This document shows positions 1 to 8,583 of a DNA stretch of 8,583 bases, one piece after another (the first letter of the stretch is position 1; each line of letters begins with the position of its first letter). This DNA is from a virus (Duplodnaviria; Heunggongvirae; Uroviricota; Caudoviricetes). The position numbers and the translations under genes were made by a program. The stretch spans positions 1 through 8,583 of the IMG/VR virus record IMGVR_UViG_2671180417_000003. One strand, given 5' to 3'. The notes under the pieces are model-generated. The model did not search any database and was not told the origin of the DNA. It saw only the letters and a program-made list of their open reading frames with translations.

Positions 1-138
1 TCTGCTTATCTTCGATTCATGACAGCCAATCATCTTTGCCAGACCGCGCTGGGTAAGCGTTGACAGGTTGATGAGTAAATCAGTTTCAGCGCGATCAATT
101 TCTCGCTGTGATAGTTTGCTGTAACTTGTTTGTTCCAT
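1..138 (-). CDS. CII-like transcriptional activator, N-terminal part only (gene starts at 138 and continues past the window start)
   Basis: Own minus-strand translation from ATG 138..136 is open to position 1: MEQTSYSKLSQREIDRAETDLLINLSTLTQRGLAKMIGCHESKISR. HTH-like segment (GLAKMIGCHESKISR) resembles lambda CII/P22 C1 family; in-frame stop two codons upstream fixes the start; position just downstream of cro-like gene on same strand matches cII. Not in ORF track because no stop inside window. Confidence 0.5.
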   Translation of the reverse strand, partial: MEQTSYSKLSQREIDRAETDLLINLSTLTQRGLAKMIGCHESKISR

Positions 139-176
139 TTCTTAAGATTTCCAATAGTGAATAGCTAGTTGAAAGG

Positions 177-194
177 TATGCGTGGAAACGCATA
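177..194 (-). promoter_or_regulatory. Perfect inverted repeat TATGCG-N6-CGCATA in the cro-like/cII-like intergenic leader (possible tR1-like or leader RNA structure)
   Basis: Plus strand 177-194 tatgcgtggaaacgcata: 6-bp perfect stem, 6-nt loop, followed on the minus strand by CCTTTC; lies 40 nt upstream of the cII-like start. Confidence 0.3.
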
Positions 195-220
195 TGGCCT
201 TAGTTGGTCAGATATATTGG

Positions 221-269
221 GACTCGCTTTGTCAGCGACGTAGGACGAATGTCCATTGTGAAAAGAGCG
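221..269 (-). promoter_or_regulatory. nutR-like region: boxA-like CGCTCTTTT, small hairpin GGAC-ATTC-GTCC, then conserved element TACGTCGCTGACAAAGCG
   Basis: Minus-strand reading just after the cro-like stop: CGCTCTTTT (plus 261-269) matches the lambdoid boxA core CGCTCTT; the 18-mer (plus 225-242) is 17/18 identical to an element in the N leader at 3175-3192; both can form a 4-bp stem around the loop TGACAAA. Confidence 0.45.
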
Positions 270-276
270 GTGTTAC

Positions 277-510
277 TTATGCAGCCGATGCTCTACGCGA
301 TACGAACACTAGGTTTTCCTTTTTCACAGGTTTATAACCCGTGAAATTACGAGTAGCTTCTTCGATTGCATTCGCTTTATCAGGGGAAGCTCTTCGAAAT
401 CCATATGCAATCTGGTCAAGATAGCCAACTGAAGTTTTCGCTAATGCGGCGAGTCGCTTCCATTCCTCACTAGAAGCCTCTTTTCGCCAGCGTAGTAGTT
501 CATTACTCAT
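277..510 (-). CDS. Cro-like small HTH DNA-binding regulator (77 aa)
   Basis: ORF track 277..510; SD GGAGG (plus 516-520 as CCTCC) 5 nt before ATG; HTH-like segment WKRLAALAKTSVGYLDQIAYGFRRASPDKANAIEEAT; divergent from the CI-type repressor across an operator-bearing intergenic region, the canonical cro position. Confidence 0.6.
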   Translation of the reverse strand: MSNELLRWRKEASSEEWKRLAALAKTSVGYLDQIAYGFRRASPDKANAIEEATRNFTGYKPVKKENLVFVSRRASAA

Positions 511-537
511 TAGTGCCTCCGTTTATCACACAGAACA

Positions 538-566
538 ACTTTACCATTTTGATAAATAATCCGCAA
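538..566 (-). promoter_or_regulatory. PR-like promoter for the cro-like gene: -35 TTGCGG (566..561), 17-bp spacer, -10 TAAAGT (543..538)
   Basis: Read on minus strand: TTGCGG-attatttatcaaaatgg-TAAAGT. Same -10 hexamer, same 17-bp spacing and same ATTTATCA motif inside the spacer as the PL-like promoter at 3082-3110. Confidence 0.45.
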
Positions 567-605
567 TGTAAATTTATCATATTGCGTATTTATCCATTTG
601 CTAAA
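540..605. promoter_or_regulatory. OR-like operator cluster: 17-bp dyads TTTACCattttGATAAA (540-556) and TTTATCcatttGCTAAA (589-605) plus half-site TTTATC (573-578); putative leaderless PRM (-10 GAAAAT 612-617)
   Basis: Three copies of the TTTATC/GATAAA half-site between divergent cro-like and cI-like genes; dyads have 6-bp arms and 5-bp AT-rich centre (17 bp, typical lambdoid operator size); the same dyad occurs perfectly at 3092-3108. Confidence 0.5.
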
Positions 606-623
606 TAGAGGGAAAATTGTGAG

Positions 624-1328
624 ATGGAAAACAAAGATATTCGCAAATCGAATCTGGCGTTTTTGCTAGATGAGCATAAAAAAATCGCGGGTAACACTAA
701 TGCAAGCTTTGCCGATAAGCTTGGGGTTAGCCCTTCTCAACTCACGCAAGTCTCCGGTGAAAAAAGCACTCGAAACATAGGGGATAAACTAGCAAGAAAA
801 TTTGAAGCCGCGCTTGGGTTACCTAATGGGTGGCTTGATTTGGTACATGATGTAACACCAATTGCATCATGCTCAGATTCTTTAACTTTTGTCGGTCAGG
901 TAAGAAAAGGGTTAGTGCGCGTGGTTGGTGAGGCAATTCTTGGTGTTGATGGTGCCATCGAGATGACCGAAGAGCGCGATGGGTGGCTCAAAATTTATAG
1001 CGATGATCCAGATGCCTTTGGTCTTCGTGTGAAAGGAGACAGCATGTGGCCCAGAATAAAATCAGGAGAATATGTACTCATTGAGCCTAACACCAAAGTA
1101 TTCCCGGGTGATGAGGTGTTTGTCAGAACCGTTGAAGGACACAACATGATTAAGGTTCTTGGCTATGACAGAGATGGAGAATACCAATTTACAAGCATTA
1201 ACCAGGATCACAGGCCTATAACGTTGCCTTATCATCAAGTAGCAAAGGTGGAGTATGTAGCTGGTATTCTGAAGCAATCTCGCCATCTGGATGACATCGA
1301 GGCAAGGGAGTGGCTGAAAAGTTCGTGA
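624..1328 (+). CDS. cI: CI-type prophage repressor: N-terminal HTH plus C-terminal S24 (LexA-like) peptidase domain, 234 aa
   Basis: ORF track 624..1328; HTH-like SFADKLGVSPSQLTQV; S24 catalytic dyad signature GDSMWP (Ser140) with Lys177 37 residues downstream (LexA-like spacing); divergent from cro-like gene. No Ala-Gly pair in the linker; position-equivalent is Leu106-Gly107. Confidence 0.9.
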   Translation: MENKDIRKSNLAFLLDEHKKIAGNTNASFADKLGVSPSQLTQVSGEKSTRNIGDKLARKFEAALGLPNGWLDLVHDVTPIASCSDSLTFVGQVRKGLVRVVGEAILGVDGAIEMTEERDGWLKIYSDDPDAFGLRVKGDSMWPRIKSGEYVLIEPNTKVFPGDEVFVRTVEGHNMIKVLGYDRDGEYQFTSINQDHRPITLPYHQVAKVEYVAGILKQSRHLDDIEAREWLKSS

Positions 1329-1388
1329 CTTCATCGTCACATAGCTGGTAACCAGTGGCCAGAAGAAACGTTTGGGTGAGGAGGATAG

Positions 1389-1730
1389 ATGGCGTTCACT
1401 GACCTTGAATATCAAGCGGTCAAAAAAGAAGTTCACCAATTCATTGAAAGCATAAGGCCGCCTGAACATATCCGCAATGAACTGGATATTGTTTATAGCA
1501 TCAATGACCAAACGATAGATATCGGCGAACAGCGCCCCGTGTGGCAGGGCAACCCAGGTGAAACAAACATCCTGCCATCAGCAAGAATCAAGTACATACG
1601 TTCTCTGGATAGATGGAAAATCTATTGGATGCGGAAGGATATGAAATGGCATCAGTACAGTACTGAACTTTCGCTGACTGATGCGCTTGAGCTTGTGCGT
1701 GCTGACCCGGATTGCTGCTTCTTCGGATGA
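1389..1730 (+). CDS. Hypothetical protein (113 aa), first gene after the repressor; function unrecognised
   Basis: ORF track 1389..1730; strong SD GAGGAGG (1378-1384) 4 nt before ATG; same strand as cI, 60 bp downstream; GC content similar to phage backbone; ends CCFFG. Confidence 0.7.
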   Translation: MAFTDLEYQAVKKEVHQFIESIRPPEHIRNELDIVYSINDQTIDIGEQRPVWQGNPGETNILPSARIKYIRSLDRWKIYWMRKDMKWHQYSTELSLTDALELVRADPDCCFFG

Positions 1731-1800
1731 GTGAAGAGACGTTTGGATGATGGATGATCGCAGAGATGCTCGTAGAGCATACAGCGATGCAGGAGAATTT

Positions 1801-2235
1801 ATGGCACTTAATTTAGAAAGAATATCTTTTATAACCCCATTTGATAGCAGCGAAGAACCCAACCAACCGACGCTTAATTTTACATGCAATGAATTTCCTG
1901 CGCGGCTATCAATTGATTTCAGGGTTGGTATGATCGGGTTGAAACCAAATTCAAGATATAATTTGGGTATTATGGTAATCCCCGCGCACCTAATTATAAA
2001 AAAAGGTGAGGAAATTCAATTCCCTGACGGCTCTTCGGAATCAGTTTCACTTTTCATCGATACGAAAGATAGCCATTTTGAAACAGGGGTTGGCGGACAG
2101 GTAATAGTAACATTGAAAGAAATTAGGGTCCCAGCTAAAGGGCTGTATAGTGTTATAGGGATATTGCAAGATAATGAAGACCCTAAAAATGAACTTCATA
2201 AAAATGAATCATTTTTCACCGTAGAGCTATTATGA
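1801..2235 (+). CDS. Hypothetical soluble protein (144 aa from ATG 1801; alternative start 1747 gives 162 aa); AT-rich cargo gene
   Basis: ORF track 1747..2235; preferred start ATG 1801 has SD AGGAG (1791-1795) with 5-nt spacer; stop TGA overlaps next start (ATGA at 2232-2235); AT-rich composition; no recognisable catalytic motif. Confidence 0.7.
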   Translation: MALNLERISFITPFDSSEEPNQPTLNFTCNEFPARLSIDFRVGMIGLKPNSRYNLGIMVIPAHLIIKKGEEIQFPDGSSESVSLFIDTKDSHFETGVGGQVIVTLKEIRVPAKGLYSVIGILQDNEDPKNELHKNESFFTVELL

Positions 2236-2852
2236 GTGACGACAGTAATTTAAATAATCATGGAAAGCAAGACACCAACATATCTGAAAGCCGGAGGTTG
2301 AAGGTTGTTGGCGGTTCCGATTTTGAGGCTGAATTTGATAATTCTCCCACCAAGGTGCAAAATAATTACATAAAACCGCCACAAACGGAGGAAGAAGTGG
2401 GAACGATCAGCAGAGAGGAACTTGATGCTCGCTTAGCTGCTAATAAAGCAGAGATGGAGTCTATTGCTTCTTCCATTAGGGCTGACATGGCTCTATCTCG
2501 TGAAAGCGTTAATGTCCAATTTGCATCACTTAATGCAGCCATAAGCTCTCTATCGTCCAAGATCGATGGAAAGATGGATAGCGCTGCTGGCGATATAAAA
2601 GCAATTAATGGGAGATTCGAAGGAATTCAAGGACAAATAACAGGGGTTAATACCGCAATTAGTGGTGTTCAGTCGGGTATTTCTATACGATTAGCCATTT
2701 TTAGTGTCATTATCGCTGTAATAGTTGCGATTCCCGGGCTGGTATCAGCTTTAAAGTCAGACCACGTACCTTTGCAACAGCCTTCCACTTTGCAAGCGCC
2801 GCCACAAAATACCCAGCCAACAGACAACAAAAAAATCACTCCCCAGCATTAA
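2232..2852 (+). CDS. Hypothetical single-pass membrane protein (206 aa) with long Ser/Ala/Ile/Gly-rich helical N-terminal region, one TM helix, Pro/Gln-rich C-tail
   Basis: ORF track 2232..2852; ATGA overlap with upstream gene; hydrophobic stretch IRLAIFSVIIAVIVAIPGLVSAL (about residues 152-174); C-tail KSDHVPLQQPSTLQAPPQNTQPTDNKKITPQH; AT-rich; followed directly by an intrinsic terminator. Confidence 0.75.
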   Translation: MSDDSNLNNHGKQDTNISESRRLKVVGGSDFEAEFDNSPTKVQNNYIKPPQTEEEVGTISREELDARLAANKAEMESIASSIRADMALSRESVNVQFASLNAAISSLSSKIDGKMDSAAGDIKAINGRFEGIQGQITGVNTAISGVQSGISIRLAIFSVIIAVIVAIPGLVSALKSDHVPLQQPSTLQAPPQNTQPTDNKKITPQH

Positions 2853-2858
2853 CGCATT

Positions 2859-2887
2859 AACCCGGCCTCAGCGCCGGGTTTTCTTTG
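2859..2887 (+). terminator. Rho-independent terminator closing the cI-downstream operon
   Basis: AACCCGGC-ctca gc-GCCGGGTT stem (GC-rich, 6-8 bp; 2859-2880) followed by TTTTCTTTG, 7 nt after the stop codon of the membrane-protein gene. Confidence 0.7.
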
Positions 2888-2993
2888 CCTCACGATCCCC
2901 ACACCTAAAAACACATAACCAATTGTATTTGTTGAAAAATAAATAGATACAACTTGCTAAACAACGCAATCCAGATCTCCCTCAAATCTCTTT

Positions 2994-3110
2994 ATTTATC
3001 CTGTCGAATTCCTACAACAAAATAAAACACCATAAGAATCAATACGATATTTGAAAACCAAGAGAATTTATCATTTTGCTATTGCCATTAATTTATCATT
3101 CCGATAAAGT
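2994..3110 (+). promoter_or_regulatory. PL/OL-like region: -35 TTGCCA (3082-3087), 17-bp spacer, -10 TAAAGT (3105-3110); perfect 17-bp operator dyad TTTATCattccGATAAA (3092-3108) plus upstream half-sites at 3067-3072 and 2995-3000
   Basis: Same half-site family (TTTATC/GATAAA) and same promoter hexamers/spacing as the OR/PR-like region at 538-605; shared 10-11-mers AATTTATCAT(T) at 3065-3075, 3090-3100 and 571-580, and TATTTATCC at 2993-3001 and 587-595; positioned about 250 nt upstream of the N-like gene. Confidence 0.5.
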
Positions 3111-3158
3111 TCACCCATCAGCAGGACGCACTACTCACCAGGGCGGTGAATATACAAC

Positions 3159-3193
3159 GATTCGAATATGAATCTACGGCGCTGACAAAGCGC
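3159..3193 (+). promoter_or_regulatory. nutL-like element in the N leader: hairpin GATTC-GAATAT-GAATC followed by TACGGCGCTGACAAAGCGC
   Basis: 18-mer 3175-3192 is 17/18 identical to the minus-strand element at 225-242 in the cro/cII intergenic region; stems GCGC/GCGC here versus TCGC/GCGA there (compensatory change) around identical loop TGACAAA; both are preceded by a small hairpin. Confidence 0.4.
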
Positions 3194-3358
3194 AATAACC
3201 AAAGTGAACTTTGGGGTGTGGTGAAGGGTTCATGGACGGGAATATGTCGCACGTAAAGCGGCGAGGCCTGCGGGACTATTGCCGAATTGAAGTAGGCCGA
3301 AACAGGTCGAAATGGGTCTCCCACCTACCACACCACCAAAGTTCATCAGGAGGTCTAT

Positions 3359-3742
3359 ATGACACGCAGAACTCAGTTCAAAGGCAATTCACGTTCTCGT
3401 CGTCGTGAGCGTTTAAAGGTAAAGGCATTAGCTAACGGCGTACTGGCCCGCGAAGAAGCAATAAGTTCAGAAGTATTACACCGCCCTACTCTAAGCAGAG
3501 CGCAGATTCAGGCTAAAGGTACTCACGAAACGCCTGAGCGCATAGAAGACGCTAAGCCAATTAAGTTCATGGCACAGGACGTGATCTGGCAACAGAAAGA
3601 ATACAGACGCAATCTGGAGCGAGCGGCCATTGTGTACGCGAATGAGTTTGGACATAAGCAACCAGAAACTGGTGTATGTCTTCCAAACGTAGCTCTTTAC
3701 GCGGCAGGCTACCGGAAATCAAAACAACTGACAGCAAGATGA
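3359..3742 (+). CDS. N: N-type transcription antiterminator (127 aa), Stx-phage/933W-like by recollection, with N-terminal arginine-rich motif
   Basis: ORF track 3359..3742; SD AGGAGG (3348-3353) 5 nt before ATG; N-terminus MTRRTQFKGNSRSRRRERLKVKALANG is a classic arginine-rich RNA-binding motif; first gene after the PL-like promoter and long structured leader. Confidence 0.75.
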   Translation: MTRRTQFKGNSRSRRRERLKVKALANGVLAREEAISSEVLHRPTLSRAQIQAKGTHETPERIEDAKPIKFMAQDVIWQQKEYRRNLERAAIVYANEFGHKQPETGVCLPNVALYAAGYRKSKQLTAR

Positions 3743-3803
3743 CTTGTGTTGGTCGCCAGAAAATGAAATTAGGCAGCAAACCACTTATTTGAGAGGAATT
3801 AAT

Positions 3804-4427
3804 ATGTCATCAATCCGCTTAACTACGAGAATGAAAGAGGAAATCGCTCGTAACGCTTTAATTAAGTCCGGGGTGTTCACTGAACTTGAAGAAGTAACAA
3901 AGTTAAAGAACCAGCTTGCACTTGACGCCAGAGTTATTGCGTTTGGCGGTAAAAAGAAAACTGAGGAAGTGGATCAGCTATCATCCAAGTTGGTAGCTAT
4001 AAGTGAAGAACTTGGAAAGATGGGATGTTCATTTTACTCATACGATGTTAGTTCTACTTCAATTTATCTGACTGTATCTGGCAGAAGGGTTGGATGGCAT
4101 TCATATGGGAAAGACGGCAACGGCAAAGATATATTGCTCCCTACTCCGATCAAAGATAAATGCATGTTTGACGCAGAACACGAAATAACAAAAAGGTTTG
4201 ATGAAATCTGCGCATTGCAACAAAAACTTGAAGCCAAGAAAAAGGATATCGAATCAAATGTATGGGCTGCTTTGAACTCAGTCACAACAGTTAAGCGACT
4301 TATTGAAGTTTGGCCTGAAAGCAAAGAATTGCTACCAAAAGAAGCAGATAAAGCAAGTACAGCACTTCCTGCTTTACGGGTAGAAGATTTGAATAAGATG
4401 ATTGGACTTCCTTCCGAGGCCGCATAG
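3804..4427 (+). CDS. Hypothetical protein (208 aa from ATG 3804), AT-rich accessory gene in the N-to-cIII slot
   Basis: ORF track 3744..4427 uses a TTG start; ATG 3804 preferred because of SD GAGAGGA (3791-3797) with 6-nt spacer; hydrophilic, Lys/Glu-rich with predicted coiled-coil-like segments; stop lies inside a terminator hairpin. Confidence 0.7.
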   Translation: MSSIRLTTRMKEEIARNALIKSGVFTELEEVTKLKNQLALDARVIAFGGKKKTEEVDQLSSKLVAISEELGKMGCSFYSYDVSSTSIYLTVSGRRVGWHSYGKDGNGKDILLPTPIKDKCMFDAEHEITKRFDEICALQQKLEAKKKDIESNVWAALNSVTTVKRLIEVWPESKELLPKEADKASTALPALRVEDLNKMIGLPSEAA

Positions 4428-4442
4428 TCGGCCTTTATTTTT
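4417..4442 (+). terminator. Rho-independent terminator (tL1-like) immediately after the 3804-4427 gene
   Basis: AGGCCG-catagt-CGGCCT 6-bp stem (4417-4434) followed by TTATTTTT (4435-4442); stop codon TAG sits in the loop. Confidence 0.65.
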
Positions 4443-4471
4443 GGCATAAACAACAGAATAAATACTGCACT

Positions 4472-4499
4472 GTGTATTCATTCCAACGAGTGAATACAC
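4472..4499. repeat. Perfect 9-bp inverted repeat GTGTATTCA-N10-TGAATACAC
   Basis: Seen directly at 4472-4480 and 4491-4499; no T-tract after it, so more likely a protein-binding dyad or RNA processing structure than a terminator. Confidence 0.4.
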
Positions 4500-4561
4500 G
4501 GAGCAATGTCGCTCGTAACTAAACAGGAGCCGACTTGTTCTGATTATTGGAAATCTTCTTT

Positions 4562-4586
4562 GCCCTCCAGTGTGAGGGCCTTTTTA
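4562..4586 (+). terminator. Rho-independent terminator (tL2-like) upstream of cIII
   Basis: GCCCTC-cagtgt-GAGGGC stem (4562-4579) followed by CTTTTTA; a second weaker hairpin AACGC-N10-GCGTT plus TTTTCG follows at about 4600-4623. Confidence 0.6.
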
Positions 4587-4648
4587 TATGCATACCAATA
4601 ACGCTTCACTCGAGGCGTTTTTCGTTATGTATAAATAAGGAGCACACC

Positions 4649-4813
4649 ATGCAATATGCCATTGCAGGGTGGCCTGTTGCTGGCTGCCCTTCCGAATCTT
4701 TACTTGAACGAATCACCCGTAAATTACGTGACGGATGGAAACGCCTTATCGACATACTTAATCAGCCAGGAGTCCCAAAGAATGGATCAAACACTTATGG
4801 CTATCCAGACTAA
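4649..4813 (+). CDS. cIII: CIII (54 aa), FtsH inhibitor that stabilises CII
   Basis: Translation [54 protein letters not shown] matches lambda CIII as I recall it; SD TAAGGAG (4636-4642) 6 nt before ATG 4649; the ORF-track entry 4547..4813 is an artefactual N-terminal extension through the terminator. Confidence 0.85.
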   Translation: MQYAIAGWPVAGCPSESLLERITRKLRDGWKRLIDILNQPGVPKNGSNTYGYPD

Positions 4814-4925
4814 ATTCACTATCGCCACTTTTATTGGCGATGAAAAGATGTTTCGTGAAGCCGTCGACGCTTATAAAAAATGGATATTAATACTGAAACT
4901 GAGATCAAGCAAAAGCATTCACTAA
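4782..4925 (+). CDS. kil: Kil (47 aa), host cell-division inhibitor
   Basis: [47 protein letters not shown] matches lambda Kil from memory; 32-nt overlap with cIII and 46-nt overlap with the gam long-form start, as in lambda; ORF-track 4656..4925 is an upstream extension. Confidence 0.75.
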
Positions 4926-4998
4926 CCCCTTTCCTGTTTTCCTAATCAGCCCGGCATTTCGCGGGCGATATTTTCACAGCTATTTCAGGAGTTCGGCC

Positions 4999-5295
4999 AT
5001 GAACGCTTATTACATTCAGGATCGTCTTGAGGCTCAGAGCTGGGCGCGTCACTACCAGCAGATAGCCCGTGAAGAGAAAGAGGCAGAACTGGCAGACGAC
5101 ATGGAAAAAGGCCTGCCCCAGCACCTGTTTGAATCGCTATGCATCGGTCATTTGCAACGCCACGGGGCCAGCAAAAAAGCCATTACCCGTGCGTTTGATG
5201 ACGATGTTGAGTTTCAGGAGCGCATGGCAGAACACATCCGGTACATGGTTGAAACCATTGCTCACCATCAGGTTGATATTGATTCAGAGGTATAA
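4999..5295 (+). CDS. gam: Gam, short form (98 aa), RecBCD inhibitor
   Basis: ORF track 4999..5295; near-identical to lambda Gam C-terminal 98 residues from memory; SD AGGAG (4987-4991). The upstream long-form start (ATG 4880) is in a different frame here, see findings. Confidence 0.9.
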
Positions 5296-5300
5296 AACGG

Positions 5301-6086
5301 ATGAGTACAGCACTCGCAACGCTGGCAGGGAAGCTGGCTGAACGTGTCGGCATGGATTCTGTCGACCCACAGGAACTGATCACCACTCTTCGCCAGACGG
5401 CATTTAAAGGCGATGCCAGCGATGCGCAGTTCATCGCATTGTTGATCGTCGCCAACCAGTACGGCCTTAATCCGTGGATGAAAGAAATTTACGCCTTCCC
5501 TGATAAGCAGAACGGCATCGTTCCGGTGGTGGGCGTTGATGGCTGGTCCCGCATCATCAATGAAAACCAGCATTTTGATGGCATGGACTTTGAGCAGGAC
5601 AATGAATCCTGTACATGCCGGATTTACCGCAAGGACCGTAATCATCCGATCTGCGTTACCGAATGGATGGATGAATGCCGCCGCGAACCATTCAAAACCC
5701 GCGAAGGCAGAGAAATCACGGGGCCGTGGCAGTCGCATCCTAAACGGATGTTACGGCATAAAGCTATGATTCAGTGTGCCCGTCTGGCCTTCGGATTTGC
5801 TGGTATCTATGACAAGGATGAAGCCGAGCGCATTGTCGAAAATACTGCATACACTGCAGAACGCCAGCCGGAACGCGACATCACTCCGGTTAACGATGAA
5901 ACCATGCAGGAGATTAACACTCTGCTAATCGCCCTGGATAAAACATGGGATGACGACTTATTGCCGCTCTGTTCCCAGATATTTCGCCGCGACATTCGCG
6001 CATCGTCAGAACTGACACAGGCCGAAGCAGTGAAAGCTCTTGGATTCCTGAAACAGAAAGCCACTGAGCAGAAGGTGGCAGCATGA
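5301..6086 (+). CDS. bet: Bet (Red-beta) single-strand annealing recombinase, 261 aa
   Basis: ORF track 5301..6086; sequence [88 protein letters not shown]... recognised as lambda Bet; followed by exo with ATGA overlap. Confidence 0.95.
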
Positions 6087-6763
6087 CACCGGACATTATC
6101 CTGCAGCGTACCGGGATCGACGTGAGAGCTGTCGAACAGGGGGATGATGCATGGCACAAATTACGGCTCGGCGTCATCACCGCTTCAGAAGTTCACAACG
6201 TGATAGCAAAGCCCCGCTCAGGAAAGAAGTGGCCTGACATGAAAATGTCCTACTTCCACACCCTGCTGGCTGAGGTTTGCACCGGTGTGGCTCCGGAAGT
6301 TAATGCTAAGGCGCTGGCCTGGGGAAAACAGTACGAGAACGACGCCAGAACCCTGTTTGAATTCACTTCCGGCGTGAATGTTACTGAATCCCCGATCATC
6401 TATCGCGACGAAAGTATGCGCACCGCCTGCTCTCCCGATGGTTTATGCAGTGACGGCAACGGCCTTGAGCTGAAATGCCCGTTTACCTCCCGGGATTTCA
6501 TGAAATTCCGGCTCGGTGGTTTCGAGGCCATAAAGTCGGCTTACATGGCCCAGGTGCAGTACAGCATGTGGGTGACGCGAAAAGATGCCTGGTACTTTGC
6601 CAACTATGACCCACGAATGAAGCGTGAAGGCCTGCATTATGTCGTGGTTGAGCGGGATGAAAATTACATGGCGAGTTTTGACGAGATGGTGCCGGAGTTC
6701 ATCGAAAAAATGGACGAGGCACTGGCTGAAATTGGTTTTGTATTTGGGGAGCAATGGCGATGA
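6083..6763 (+). CDS. exo: Exo (lambda exonuclease, Red-alpha), 226 aa
   Basis: ORF track 6083..6763; [69 protein letters not shown]... recognised as lambda Exo; ATGA start overlap with bet stop. Confidence 0.95.
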
Positions 6764-6942
6764 AGCATCCTCACGATAATATCCGCGTAGGCACGATCAC
6801 TTTCGTCTACTCCGTTACAAAGCGAGGCTGGGTATTTCCCGGCCTTTCTGTTATCCAAAATCCACTGAAAGCCCAGCGGCTGGCTGAGGAGATAAATAAT
6901 AAACGAGGGGCTGTATGCACAAAGCATCTCCTGTTGAGTTAA
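6760..6942 (+). CDS. Small protein (60 aa), lambda orf60a-like
   Basis: ATG 6760 overlaps exo stop (ATGA); [60 protein letters not shown]; ORF track gives 6754..6942 from an upstream in-frame ATG. Confidence 0.7.
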
Positions 6943-7106
6943 GAACGAGCATTGAGATGGCACATAGCCTTGCTCAAATTGGAGTCAGGTTTGTGCCAAT
7001 ATCAGTAGAAACAGACGAAGAATTTCATACGTTAGCCGCATCCCTTTCACAAAAGCTGGAAATGATGGTGGCGAAAGCAGAAGCAGATGAGAGAGACCAG
7101 GTATGA
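6915..7106 (+). CDS. Small protein (63 aa), lambda orf63-like
   Basis: ORF track 6915..7106; SD GAGGGG (6905-6910); overlaps preceding gene by 28 nt; sequence [63 protein letters not shown]. Confidence 0.7.
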   Translation: MHKASPVELRTSIEMAHSLAQIGVRFVPISVETDEEFHTLAASLSQKLEMMVAKAEADERDQV

Positions 7107-7186
7107 CAACCACTGAATGCATTCTTCTGGCAGCGGGCTTTATATTCTGTGTGCTTATGCTTGCCGACATGGGACTTGTTCAATGA
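7103..7186 (+). CDS. Candidate small hydrophobic peptide (27 aa) MTTTECILLAAGFIFCVLMLADMGLVQ
   Basis: Own translation; ATG 7103 overlaps the orf63-like stop (ATGA) and its stop overlaps the next start ATG 7183 (ATGA); hydrophobic core compatible with a single TM helix; not in ORF track (below size cutoff). Confidence 0.3.
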   Translation: MTTTECILLAAGFIFCVLMLADMGLVQ

Positions 7187-7398
7187 CACCTCAGCAGGAA
7201 AACGCCCTTCGCAGCATTGCCCGTAAGGCTAATTCTGAAATCAAAAAAGCCAGACAGCAGTTTCCGGATAAAAACGTCGATGACATTTGCCGTAGCGTAC
7301 TGAAGAAGCACCGCGAAACGGTAACGCTGATGGGATTCACACCGACTCACTTAAGTCTGGCAATCGGTATGTTAAACGGCGTCTTTAAGGAACGGTGA
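7183..7398 (+). CDS. Small protein (71 aa from ATG 7183), lambda orf61-like
   Basis: ORF track 7117..7398 starts at an ATG with no SD; ATG 7183 (MTPQQENALRSIARKANSEIKKARQQF...) is translationally coupled to the upstream small ORF; basic, hydrophilic. Confidence 0.6.
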   Translation: MTPQQENALRSIARKANSEIKKARQQFPDKNVDDICRSVLKKHRETVTLMGFTPTHLSLAIGMLNGVFKER

Positions 7399-7419
7399 AC
7401 ATGAAAAGCAAAATCATCA

Positions 7420-7444
7420 GGGAGCCACAGGCTCCTTTTTTATT
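7420..7444 (+). terminator. Rho-independent terminator after the orf61-like gene
   Basis: GGAGCC-aca-GGCTCC stem (7421-7435) followed by TTTTTT (7436-7441) and ATTATT. Confidence 0.55.
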
Positions 7445-7496
7445 ATTCGCATTCACCCTCAAGCGTATTAACCAACAATTCAGGGATTAATGAAAG

Positions 7497-7718
7497 ATGG
7501 CGGACATCATTGATTCAGCATCAGAAATTGAAGAATTACAGCGCAATACAGCAATAAAAATGCGTCGTCTGAACTACCAGACTATATCCGCCACTCATTG
7601 TTGCGAGTGTGGCGATCCGATAGATGAGCGGCGACGCCTGGCTGTTCGTGGATGCAGAGCTTGCGCCAGTTGCCAGCAGGATATTGAACTTATCAACAAA
7701 CAGAGAGGTGTGAAGTGA
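7497..7718 (+). CDS. TraR/DksA-family C4 zinc-finger protein (73 aa), lambda Orf73-like RNA polymerase secondary-channel binder
   Basis: ORF track 7497..7718; four-Cys motif C-C-E-C ... C-R-A-C-A-S-C (CCECGDPIDERRRLAVRGCRACASC) and size typical of TraR; position in exo-ea22 interval. Confidence 0.8.
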   Translation: MADIIDSASEIEELQRNTAIKMRRLNYQTISATHCCECGDPIDERRRLAVRGCRACASCQQDIELINKQRGVK

Positions 7719-7999
7719 ACATCAACACCACGATAACGATCGATACAGCCCTGAACACCGGCCTAGCGCTCCTTGGTTATTTCTACATCATGTTCTGCAG
7801 CGGACGATGGCTGTCACTGTTGTTCATGAAAAAATGGAATAAACGCCGTAAGCAGGAGCAACGCCAAAAGGCAATAGATGCATTTTTCGAAGCCTTCGGT
7901 ATTGACGGCATGGAACCAGGGGATCCAGCTCGCGCAATTAGCAGAGGGGGCGTAGTAATCCTTGTATACCGGAGTGAAGAGAAAAATGAGCAAGATTGA
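7715..7999 (+). CDS. Hypothetical small membrane protein (94 aa), GTG start overlapping upstream stop
   Basis: ORF track 7715..7999; GTG 7715 overlaps TGA of the TraR-like gene; SD AGAGAGG (7702-7708) 6 nt upstream; hydrophobic segment LNTGLALLGYFYIMFCSGRWLSLLF followed by basic KKWNKRRKQEQRQK. Confidence 0.5.
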   Translation: MNINTTITIDTALNTGLALLGYFYIMFCSGRWLSLLFMKKWNKRRKQEQRQKAIDAFFEAFGIDGMEPGDPARAISRGGVVILVYRSEEKNEQD

Positions 8000-8583
8000 C
8001 TATCAGGCACTGCGTGAAAAGGCAGAGAAAGCAACTAAAGGAAGCTACATCGTAGGGCATACATCTGTTAACCAGCACGGCAATTTAACAGGAGTTTTTG
8101 TTTGCCAAAAATGGAAAGGAGAACCCGGTGGCGTGATTGCGGAATGTCATGTTAACTGCCTGATTGAATCAGATGCTCAGGCTTATGCAAACGCTGAATT
8201 CATAGCAGAGGCTAACCCGGCTACCGTGCTGGCACTGCTGGATGAACAGGAAAGAAACCAGCAATACATCAAACGCCGTGACCAGGAGAACGAGGATATT
8301 GCGCTAACGGTAGGGAAGCTGCGTGTTGAGCTTGAAGCAGCAGAGAACAACCTTATTGATAGCGAATGCCATGTTGCTGAACTGGAAGAAGCACTACGCG
8401 ATAAGCAGGCGTTACTTGAAGCCTCAGAAAAGCGCAACGCAAAATTACAAAGCGAGAATGCATACATCCGCAACCGGTACAAAGAACTGGACCTATTAAT
8501 CGGGAAAAACATTCTGGTCATGCAGGCTGCCATTATCGAATGGCAGGCAACTGGCGACGCTAAGAGCGGACTAGCATGGATTT
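7986..8583 (+). CDS. Ea22-like protein, N-terminal 199 codons (runs off window end)
   Basis: Own translation from ATG 7986 is open to the window end: MSKIDYQALREKAEKATKGSYIVGHTSVNQHGNLTGVFVCQKWKGEPGGVIAECHVNCLIESDAQAYANAEFIAEANPATVLALLDEQERNQQYIKRRDQENEDIALTVGKLRVELEAAENNLIDSECHVAELEEALRDKQALLEASEKRNAKLQSENAYIRNRYKELDLLIGKNILVMQAAIIEWQATGDAKSGLAWI; coiled-coil-rich C-terminal part; N-terminus resembles Ea22-family proteins from memory. Missing from ORF track because no stop inside window. Confidence 0.7.
   Translation, partial: MSKIDYQALREKAEKATKGSYIVGHTSVNQHGNLTGVFVCQKWKGEPGGVIAECHVNCLIESDAQAYANAEFIAEANPATVLALLDEQERNQQYIKRRDQENEDIALTVGKLRVELEAAENNLIDSECHVAELEEALRDKQALLEASEKRNAKLQSENAYIRNRYKELDLLIGKNILVMQAAIIEWQATGDAKSGLAWI

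Follow-up and report, generated by a model that had tools for sequence, protein, structure and literature searches.

Among lambdoid phages, the closest described counterparts of the repeated element considered here are the nut sites of H-19B, 933W, P22 and lambda. The nutR site of H-19B holds two hairpins, with Rho footprints on its spacer, and in nascent nutR RNA the spacer and boxB are protected from RNase H and RNase T1 by N plus NusA/NusG (PMC3526286). The same site has been used by the Sen laboratory in reporter and in vitro antitermination assays (PMC3526286), and four oligonucleotides for it, directed to boxA, the spacer, boxB and the region after boxB, are given in the supplement of Muteeb et al. 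2012 (PMC3526286). The GenBank record of 933W (AF125520) annotates a 'nutL; putative' of 67 nt that ends in GCGCTGACAAAGCGC and a 'nutR; putative' of 46 nt that runs from CGCTATTTT to TCGCTGACAAAGCGA. In the complex of the P22 N peptide with boxB (PDB 1A4T), the GACAA pentaloop is GNRA-like with its third base, a C, looped out (PMC12550061), and the looped-out C touches Arg and His of the N peptide (PMC12550061). The boxB of lambda, GCCCU-GAAGA/GAAAA-AGGGC, is placed in the transcripts from pL and pR just as the copies described below are.

The window, which is the whole stretch of 8,583 nucleotides that was analysed (positions 1 to 8,583 of IMG/VR record IMGVR_UViG_2671180417_000003), covers the immunity region and the early-left region of a Shiga-toxin-type lambdoid phage, and its best whole-window matches are Stx1a-converting phages, BP-4795 and 933W, with 97-98% identity over 67-80% of the window. 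The repeated element in it can be assigned with high confidence to the boxB of nutL and nutR of a lambdoid phage of the H-19B/933W/HK97 type, on the basis of its identity to H-19B nutR and P22 boxB, its position, orientation, fold and covariation, and the co-segregation of its loop with N. The element was already known, its description, annotation and experimental use going back more than 20 years, and its identification here is annotation, not discovery. The genes, promoters and nut-site parts of the window are as follows, with + and - for the strand.

138 to the window edge (-): cII (PF05269)
224-238 (-): nutR boxB, UCGCU-GACAA-AGCGA (UCGCUGACAAAGCGA), from the fold, the match to RS664 and the end of the 933W nutR
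239-242 (-): nutR UACG linker, inside the RS663 spacer oligonucleotide
243-254 (-): nutR spacer hairpin, GGAC-AUUC-GUCC, from the fold and the exact match to RS663
256-269 (-): nutR boxA, CGCUCUUUUCACAA, from the boxA consensus, alignment with the lambda and P22 nutR boxA, and RS662
277-510 (-): cro
604-576 (-): pR-like promoter, from a promoter scan
624-1328 (+): cI repressor, LexA-like
3082-3110 (+): pL-like promoter, TTGCCA-17-TAAAGT, from a promoter scan
3149-3158 (+): expected place of the nutL boxA judging from Stx2-1717, reading AAUAUACAAC, no canonical boxA
3159-3174 (+): GAUUC-GAAUAU-GAAUC, hairpin of the nutL spacer, which in H-19B nut sites is the 'reducer' dyad, from the fold
3175-3178 (+): nutL UACG linker between spacer hairpin and boxB, included in the 18-mer of the preliminary description
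3179-3193 (+): nutL boxB, GCGCU-GACAA-AGCGC (GCGCUGACAAAGCGC), from the minimum free energy (MFE) fold, identity to P22 and the last 15 nt of the 933W nutL
3359-3742 (+): N antiterminator gene, 127 aa, with the N-terminal arginine-rich motif GNSRSRRRERLK (Pfam PF25694)

Transcription from pL would start near 3117, and the start of the leader, CATCAGCAGGACGC, is conserved, being common to the window, lambda, P22 and Stx2-1717 in a leader alignment. The interval between cI and N (1389-2852, +) contains three ORFs of 113, 162 and 206 aa, with a hydrophobic segment in the 206-aa ORF; the same interval holds stk in 933W and rexAB in lambda. Past the last ORF downstream of cI, an intrinsic-terminator-like hairpin followed by a T run is found at 2859-2880 (+), and its position matches that of the 'tM' terminator annotated in 933W. 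On the other arm, approximately 30 nt past the nutR boxB, a hairpin UAUGCG-UUUCCA-CGCAUA followed by CCUUUCAAC is found at 177-194 (-), and in phage c341 the equivalent hairpin carries the annotation of a putative tR.

A search of the window for TACGNCGCTGACAAAGCG with up to two mismatches finds exactly two matches, at 3175-3192 (+) and 225-242 (-), and not one of 200 dinucleotide-preserving shuffles contains even a single match to this pattern, on which ground a chance repeat was rejected. The repeat extends to 19 nt in a repeat search (225-243 versus 3174-3192, 95% complementarity), such that CTACG[G/T]CGCTGACAAAGCG is present at 3174-3192 (+) in the N leader and at 243-225 (-) between cro and cII, with 18 of 19 positions identical. 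The nutL boxB at 3179-3193 (+) lies approximately 62 nt after the predicted pL start and 166 nt before the start codon of N, and the nutR boxB at 238-224 (-) lies 39 nt past the stop codon of cro and 86 nt before the start codon of cII. Both copies match the direction of transcription, N being on the plus strand and cro and cII on the minus strand, and this holds in all of the related loci. The preliminary description, which was made from the sequence of the window, had reported a near-identical element at these two sites, with flanks that are otherwise unrelated, with each copy oriented along the local transcription unit and with a base-pair-preserving difference between the stems, and each of these observations was borne out, the difference being in the outermost pair (G-C in nutL, U-A in nutR). 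Folding also confirmed the different small hairpin that it placed before each copy, except that the one given as 244-255 is off by one and lies at 254-243 (-). Its reading of the two copies as nutL and nutR is supported by the published H-19B oligonucleotides and by the 933W annotation. The oligonucleotides are collinear on window positions 198-281, three of them matching exactly and one with a single mismatch.

258-281: RS662, 'antisense to nutR boxA of H-19B', one mismatch
239-260: RS663, 'antisense to nutR spacer of H-19B', exact
219-242: RS664, 'antisense to nutR boxB of H-19B', exact
198-223: RS665, the region immediately after boxB, exact

The annotated nutL of 933W corresponds to window positions 3127-3193, and its annotated nutR to 269-224 (-). 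In the H-19B sequence (AF034975), the boxB, linker and spacer hairpins are identical to those of the window at both nut sites, and the nutL region is that of the window all the way from the start of the transcript to the end of the hairpin that follows boxB. The nutR boxA differs by one base (CGCUCUUUU in the window versus CGCUAUUUU in H-19B and 933W), and the N-leader module downstream of approximately 3216 is unlike that of H-19B but the same as that of 933W and HK97. The N protein of the window has 97.6% identity with H-19B N and 98.4% with the N of 933W-like Stx phages (Min27, EDL933-Stx) and with HK97 N.

The same boxB structure, a 5-bp stem capped by a GACAA pentaloop, was obtained as the MFE structure from short folds and from a 259-nt fold of the full leader, and the nutR boxB differs from the nutL boxB in its outermost pair only, U-A for G-C. 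Thus the hairpin of the preliminary description stands, and its 7-nt TGACAAA loop does not, the U and the last A being the closing pair. The z-score of the 76-nt nutR segment by itself is weak (-0.78) because the hairpins are short. The fold of the whole N leader has a z-score of -3.25 and includes a long-range stem of approximately 3204-3222 (GAACUUUGGGGUGUGGUG) with approximately 3322-3344 (CACCUACCACACCACCAAAGUUC) (+), which stops immediately 5' of the Shine-Dalgarno sequence of N and which resembles the stem that RNase III processes in the N leader of lambda. When the whole window was searched against Rfam (E up to 1), neither nut site matched a family and the only real match was the cIII thermoregulator; a model for nut or boxB appears to be lacking from Rfam. 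The thermoregulator match (RF01804, lambda cIII thermoregulator) is at 4636-4694 (+) and is full length, with 88.5 bits and E = 4e-21.

The nutL boxB is identical at 15 of 15 positions to the P22 nutL boxB, which was taken by accession (NC_002371, CGCTCTTTAACTTCGATGAT-GCGCTGACAAAGCGC); blastn with the 15-mer boxB padded with N gave no matches, and a full-text literature search for the literal string gctgacaaagc gave only unrelated primer lists. The GACAA loop, the U-A closing pair and the GC-rich 5-bp stem of a P22-type boxB are all present. Since the nutL copy is the P22 nutL boxB, whose structure has been solved with the N peptide, it belongs to the same class of GNRA-like pentaloops as the boxB of lambda, from which its loop differs in sequence. 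Both copies align column for column with the boxBs of lambda and P22, and the lambda and window boxBs have in common a 5-bp stem, a U-A closing pair and a 5-nt loop that starts with GA and ends with A, although the loop is GACAA in the window versus GAARA in lambda and the stem sequences differ. The earlier statement that this is not the GAAAA-type loop of lambda is therefore correct as to sequence but misleading as to class. Useful corrections are that the true loop is a GACAA pentaloop of the P22 type and that nutL has no canonical boxA. P22 has a canonical boxA and a short, unstructured spacer with no hairpin, in contrast to the hairpin-containing spacer of the window, and the P22 nutR boxB has a C-C closing mismatch, unlike that of the window.

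An N specificity unlike that of lambda, which the preliminary description had proposed, is a reasonable inference, the N of the window being in the Pfam family of P22 N. Its score against PF25694 ('Transcriptional antitermination N peptide') is 57.4 bits with a cut-off of 27.9, and that of P22 gp24 is 152 bits. The arginine-rich motif of the window N is of a different type from that of lambda N, and the window spacer differs from that of lambda by the inserted hairpin. The core of the motif is similar in P22 N and window N (GN-+-RR-ER); the motifs RTQFKGNSRSRRRER (window) and KSTFAGNAKTRRHER (P22) are identical at 7 of 15 positions and similar at 12 of 15, and in this alignment the His and Arg of P22 are placed opposite Arg and Lys of the window N. 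Elsewhere, the middle of P22 N is unrelated to the window N, and the C-terminal 30 residues are 70% identical. A sequence search of the PDB with the first 40 residues of the window N returned only a chance match and no N-peptide entry, so the link to 1A4T rests on the RNA sequence and on PMC12550061.

The sites differ from one another in what precedes boxB. The nutR boxA, CGCUCUUUU at 269-261 (-), fits a CGCUCUUUA-like consensus. At nutL, alignment of the leader with those of lambda, P22 and Stx2-1717 finds no canonical boxA at the expected place beside the spacer hairpin; in Stx2-1717 (L090), GCTCTTTAAACAAC stands directly before the spacer hairpin, where the window reads AAUAUACAAC. The 933W nutL annotation starts at CGCAYUACUCACC, of which the window equivalent is CGCACUACUCACC at 3127, and the homologue of this stretch in lambda is CGCACUGACCACC, with which the pL leader starts. 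Because CGCACUGACCACC lies upstream of the boxA of lambda, the CGCACUACUCACC copy of the window is probably not a boxA. Among relatives, the spacer hairpin varies in its loop, or its stem becomes GUCGA/UCGAC at the same place, and three unrelated stems (GAUUC, GUCGA and GGAC) are found at one place; as in the spacer dyad of the H-19B type, the sequence varies and the pairing is kept. In work of Neely and Friedman from 2000, antitermination in H-19B is reported to proceed without need for boxA, NusB or S10, and the spacer dyad, or 'reducer', reportedly acts through its pairing and not through its sequence. The degenerate boxA of nutL and the presence of three unrelated stems agree with these points. 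The sequence CUACG after the spacer hairpin (3174-3178, +; 243-239, -) and the sequence ACAA[C/U] before it (3155-3158, +; 259-256, -) are kept in all N subtypes, staying constant where boxB stems, loops and hairpin stems vary, and they are candidates for sites that are brought together by the hairpin, for example for contact with NusA. CUACG precedes the nutL boxB in all N subtypes, including the loci that were found by the nutR pattern only.

Related loci were collected from IMG/VR through N (80 loci, with N 98-99% identical to that of the window), and the nutL copy is present in all but one of them, 142-275 nt upstream of the start codon of N, the single exception having only 84 nt of sequence upstream of N. 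The nutR copy is present in all of those with enough upstream flank, on the opposite strand and 1.4-3.8 kb upstream, at a distance that varies with the immunity module in between. More distant N proteins from a phage collection (86% down to 34% identity) are accompanied by the same architecture with other boxB stems (AGGCU/AGCCU, CGGCU/AGCCG, UGGCU/AGCCA, GCUCC/CGAGC) and with a loop that is a pentaloop (GACAA, GUCAA) in some and a tetraloop (GAAA, GCAA) in others. A further 118 loci were fetched by the nutR spacer-hairpin pattern, which contains neither boxB nor N, and a boxB hairpin directly follows the pattern in 114 of the 118. Across all of these loci, fetched without the use of boxB, there are 116 distinct combinations of leader plus N and nutR, and in every one of the 116 the type of loop tracks the subtype of the N arginine-rich motif: GNSRSRRRERLK-type motifs are accompanied by GACAA at nutL (70/70) and at nutR (65/65 with data), RRRARRANL- and RRRERRAAL-type motifs by tetraloops (43/43), and the GTSRARRRERLK motif by GUCAA at nutL and GACAA at nutR. 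The N lineages of the Sakai/1717 type and of the Salmonella c341/S137 type have a true GNRA tetraloop (U-GAAA-A or U-GCAA-A) at both nutL and nutR, and N of the H-19B type is in all cases accompanied by GACAA; the tetraloop loci are among L083-L172, for example L090 at approximately 4890-4915 and the N leaders of L085, L086, L088 and L089. For alignment and counting, boxBs with a tetraloop were kept apart from those with a pentaloop, MAFFT having misplaced the one-base loop indel in a mixed set.

Tetraloop set: 11 distinct sequences, 100% of cells paired, both-side changes at 3/5 pairs, including the closing U-A to C-G, outermost pair U-A, A-U or C-G
Pentaloop set: 7 distinct sequences, 94% of cells paired, both-side changes at 2/5 pairs, outermost pair G-C, U-A or C-G

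In both sets, which consist of few and related sequences, the covariation score exceeds those of all 500 shuffles and of every slid control, and the pairing-preserving changes in relatives include G-U. The pair counts support the boxB structure but give no formal probability, because the sequences are related and few. One copy on each arm, orientation along transcription, pairing that is kept and a cognate N downstream of nutL, as in lambdoid nut sites, were all observed.

The element starts with CGCU like the consensus CGCUCUUUA and might be taken for boxA itself, a linear sequence that binds NusB/S10; CGCUGACAA has both CGCU and the terminal A-rich part in common with boxA, and nutL has no other canonical boxA. 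However, a good boxA, CGCUCUUUU, is already present 17 nt upstream in nutR, and the published oligonucleotide table calls the element boxB and the upstream one boxA (PMC3526286). Furthermore, the stem pairs covary, which a linear element would not need, and the element is identical to P22 boxB; an identity as boxA is given next to no probability. It is extremely improbable that the element acts as DNA, either as a protein-binding site or as a junction for recombination of mosaic modules, with the RNA hairpin being incidental: the asymmetric loop always runs along transcription on both divergent arms, the changes in relatives keep RNA pairing even through G-U, the type of loop tracks the N arginine-rich motif, and protection of the RNA by N plus NusA/NusG is published (PMC3526286). 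Such a function would nevertheless fit the position of the element at the edges of exchangeable immunity modules and its invariance between copies that lie approximately 1.3 to 3.6 kb apart.

A role mainly in termination, whether as the rut part of tR1 or as a hairpin that terminates or pauses transcription, rather than as a site for N, draws on the overlap of nutR with rut in H-19B, where Rho footprints on the spacer (PMC3526286), and on the lambda annotation, in which rutA and rutB flank nutR. Yet no U tract follows the hairpin, nutL has no overlapping Rho terminator (PMC3526286), and it was the spacer, not boxB, that Rho protected, whereas N plus NusA/NusG protected boxB (PMC3526286). A rut role at nutR adds to the N site and is no alternative to it, and a role confined to termination is judged highly improbable. 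Even when chance, boxA, DNA-level and termination-only explanations are taken together they are very unlikely, and the assignment of the two copies to the boxB of nutL and nutR is retained.

As boxB, each copy would fold in the nascent RNA, upon transcription from pL or pR, into a 5-bp hairpin capped by the GACAA pentaloop, and the arginine-rich N terminus of phage N is predicted to bind this loop. NusA bound to the adjacent spacer would join N and the other Nus factors, with the spacer hairpin ('reducer') shortening the effective distance from the boxA side to boxB, and the N complex would stay tethered to RNA polymerase by looping of the RNA. The tethered polymerase would then resist terminators downstream of nutL and nutR, among them the Rho-dependent tR1, of which the Rho-loading (rut) region would overlap nutR. 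Binding of N and antitermination at these particular copies are presumed from the related systems, especially in the case of nutL.

Where the loop of nutL changes, that of nutR and the arginine-rich motif change with it, RRRERLKAKALA being found with the pentaloop and RRRARRANLQ or RRRERRAALQ with the tetraloop. A tentative explanation, which is quite possible although we lean slightly against it, is that sister lineages within one N superfamily switched boxB between the GACAA pentaloop and a GNRA tetraloop (GAAA/GCAA, closed by U-A). Should the sites of one lineage be unusable for the other, the lineages would represent a natural switch of specificity, showing by which of its residues the motif reads the looped-out C; if the switch is true, it predicts cross-recognition between P22 N and nutL of the H-19B type, the boxBs being identical. 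In Shiga-toxin phages, it is N-dependent antitermination at nutL and nutR that drives expression of the delayed-early genes, and boxB thus has a role in phage induction and, indirectly, in toxin production.
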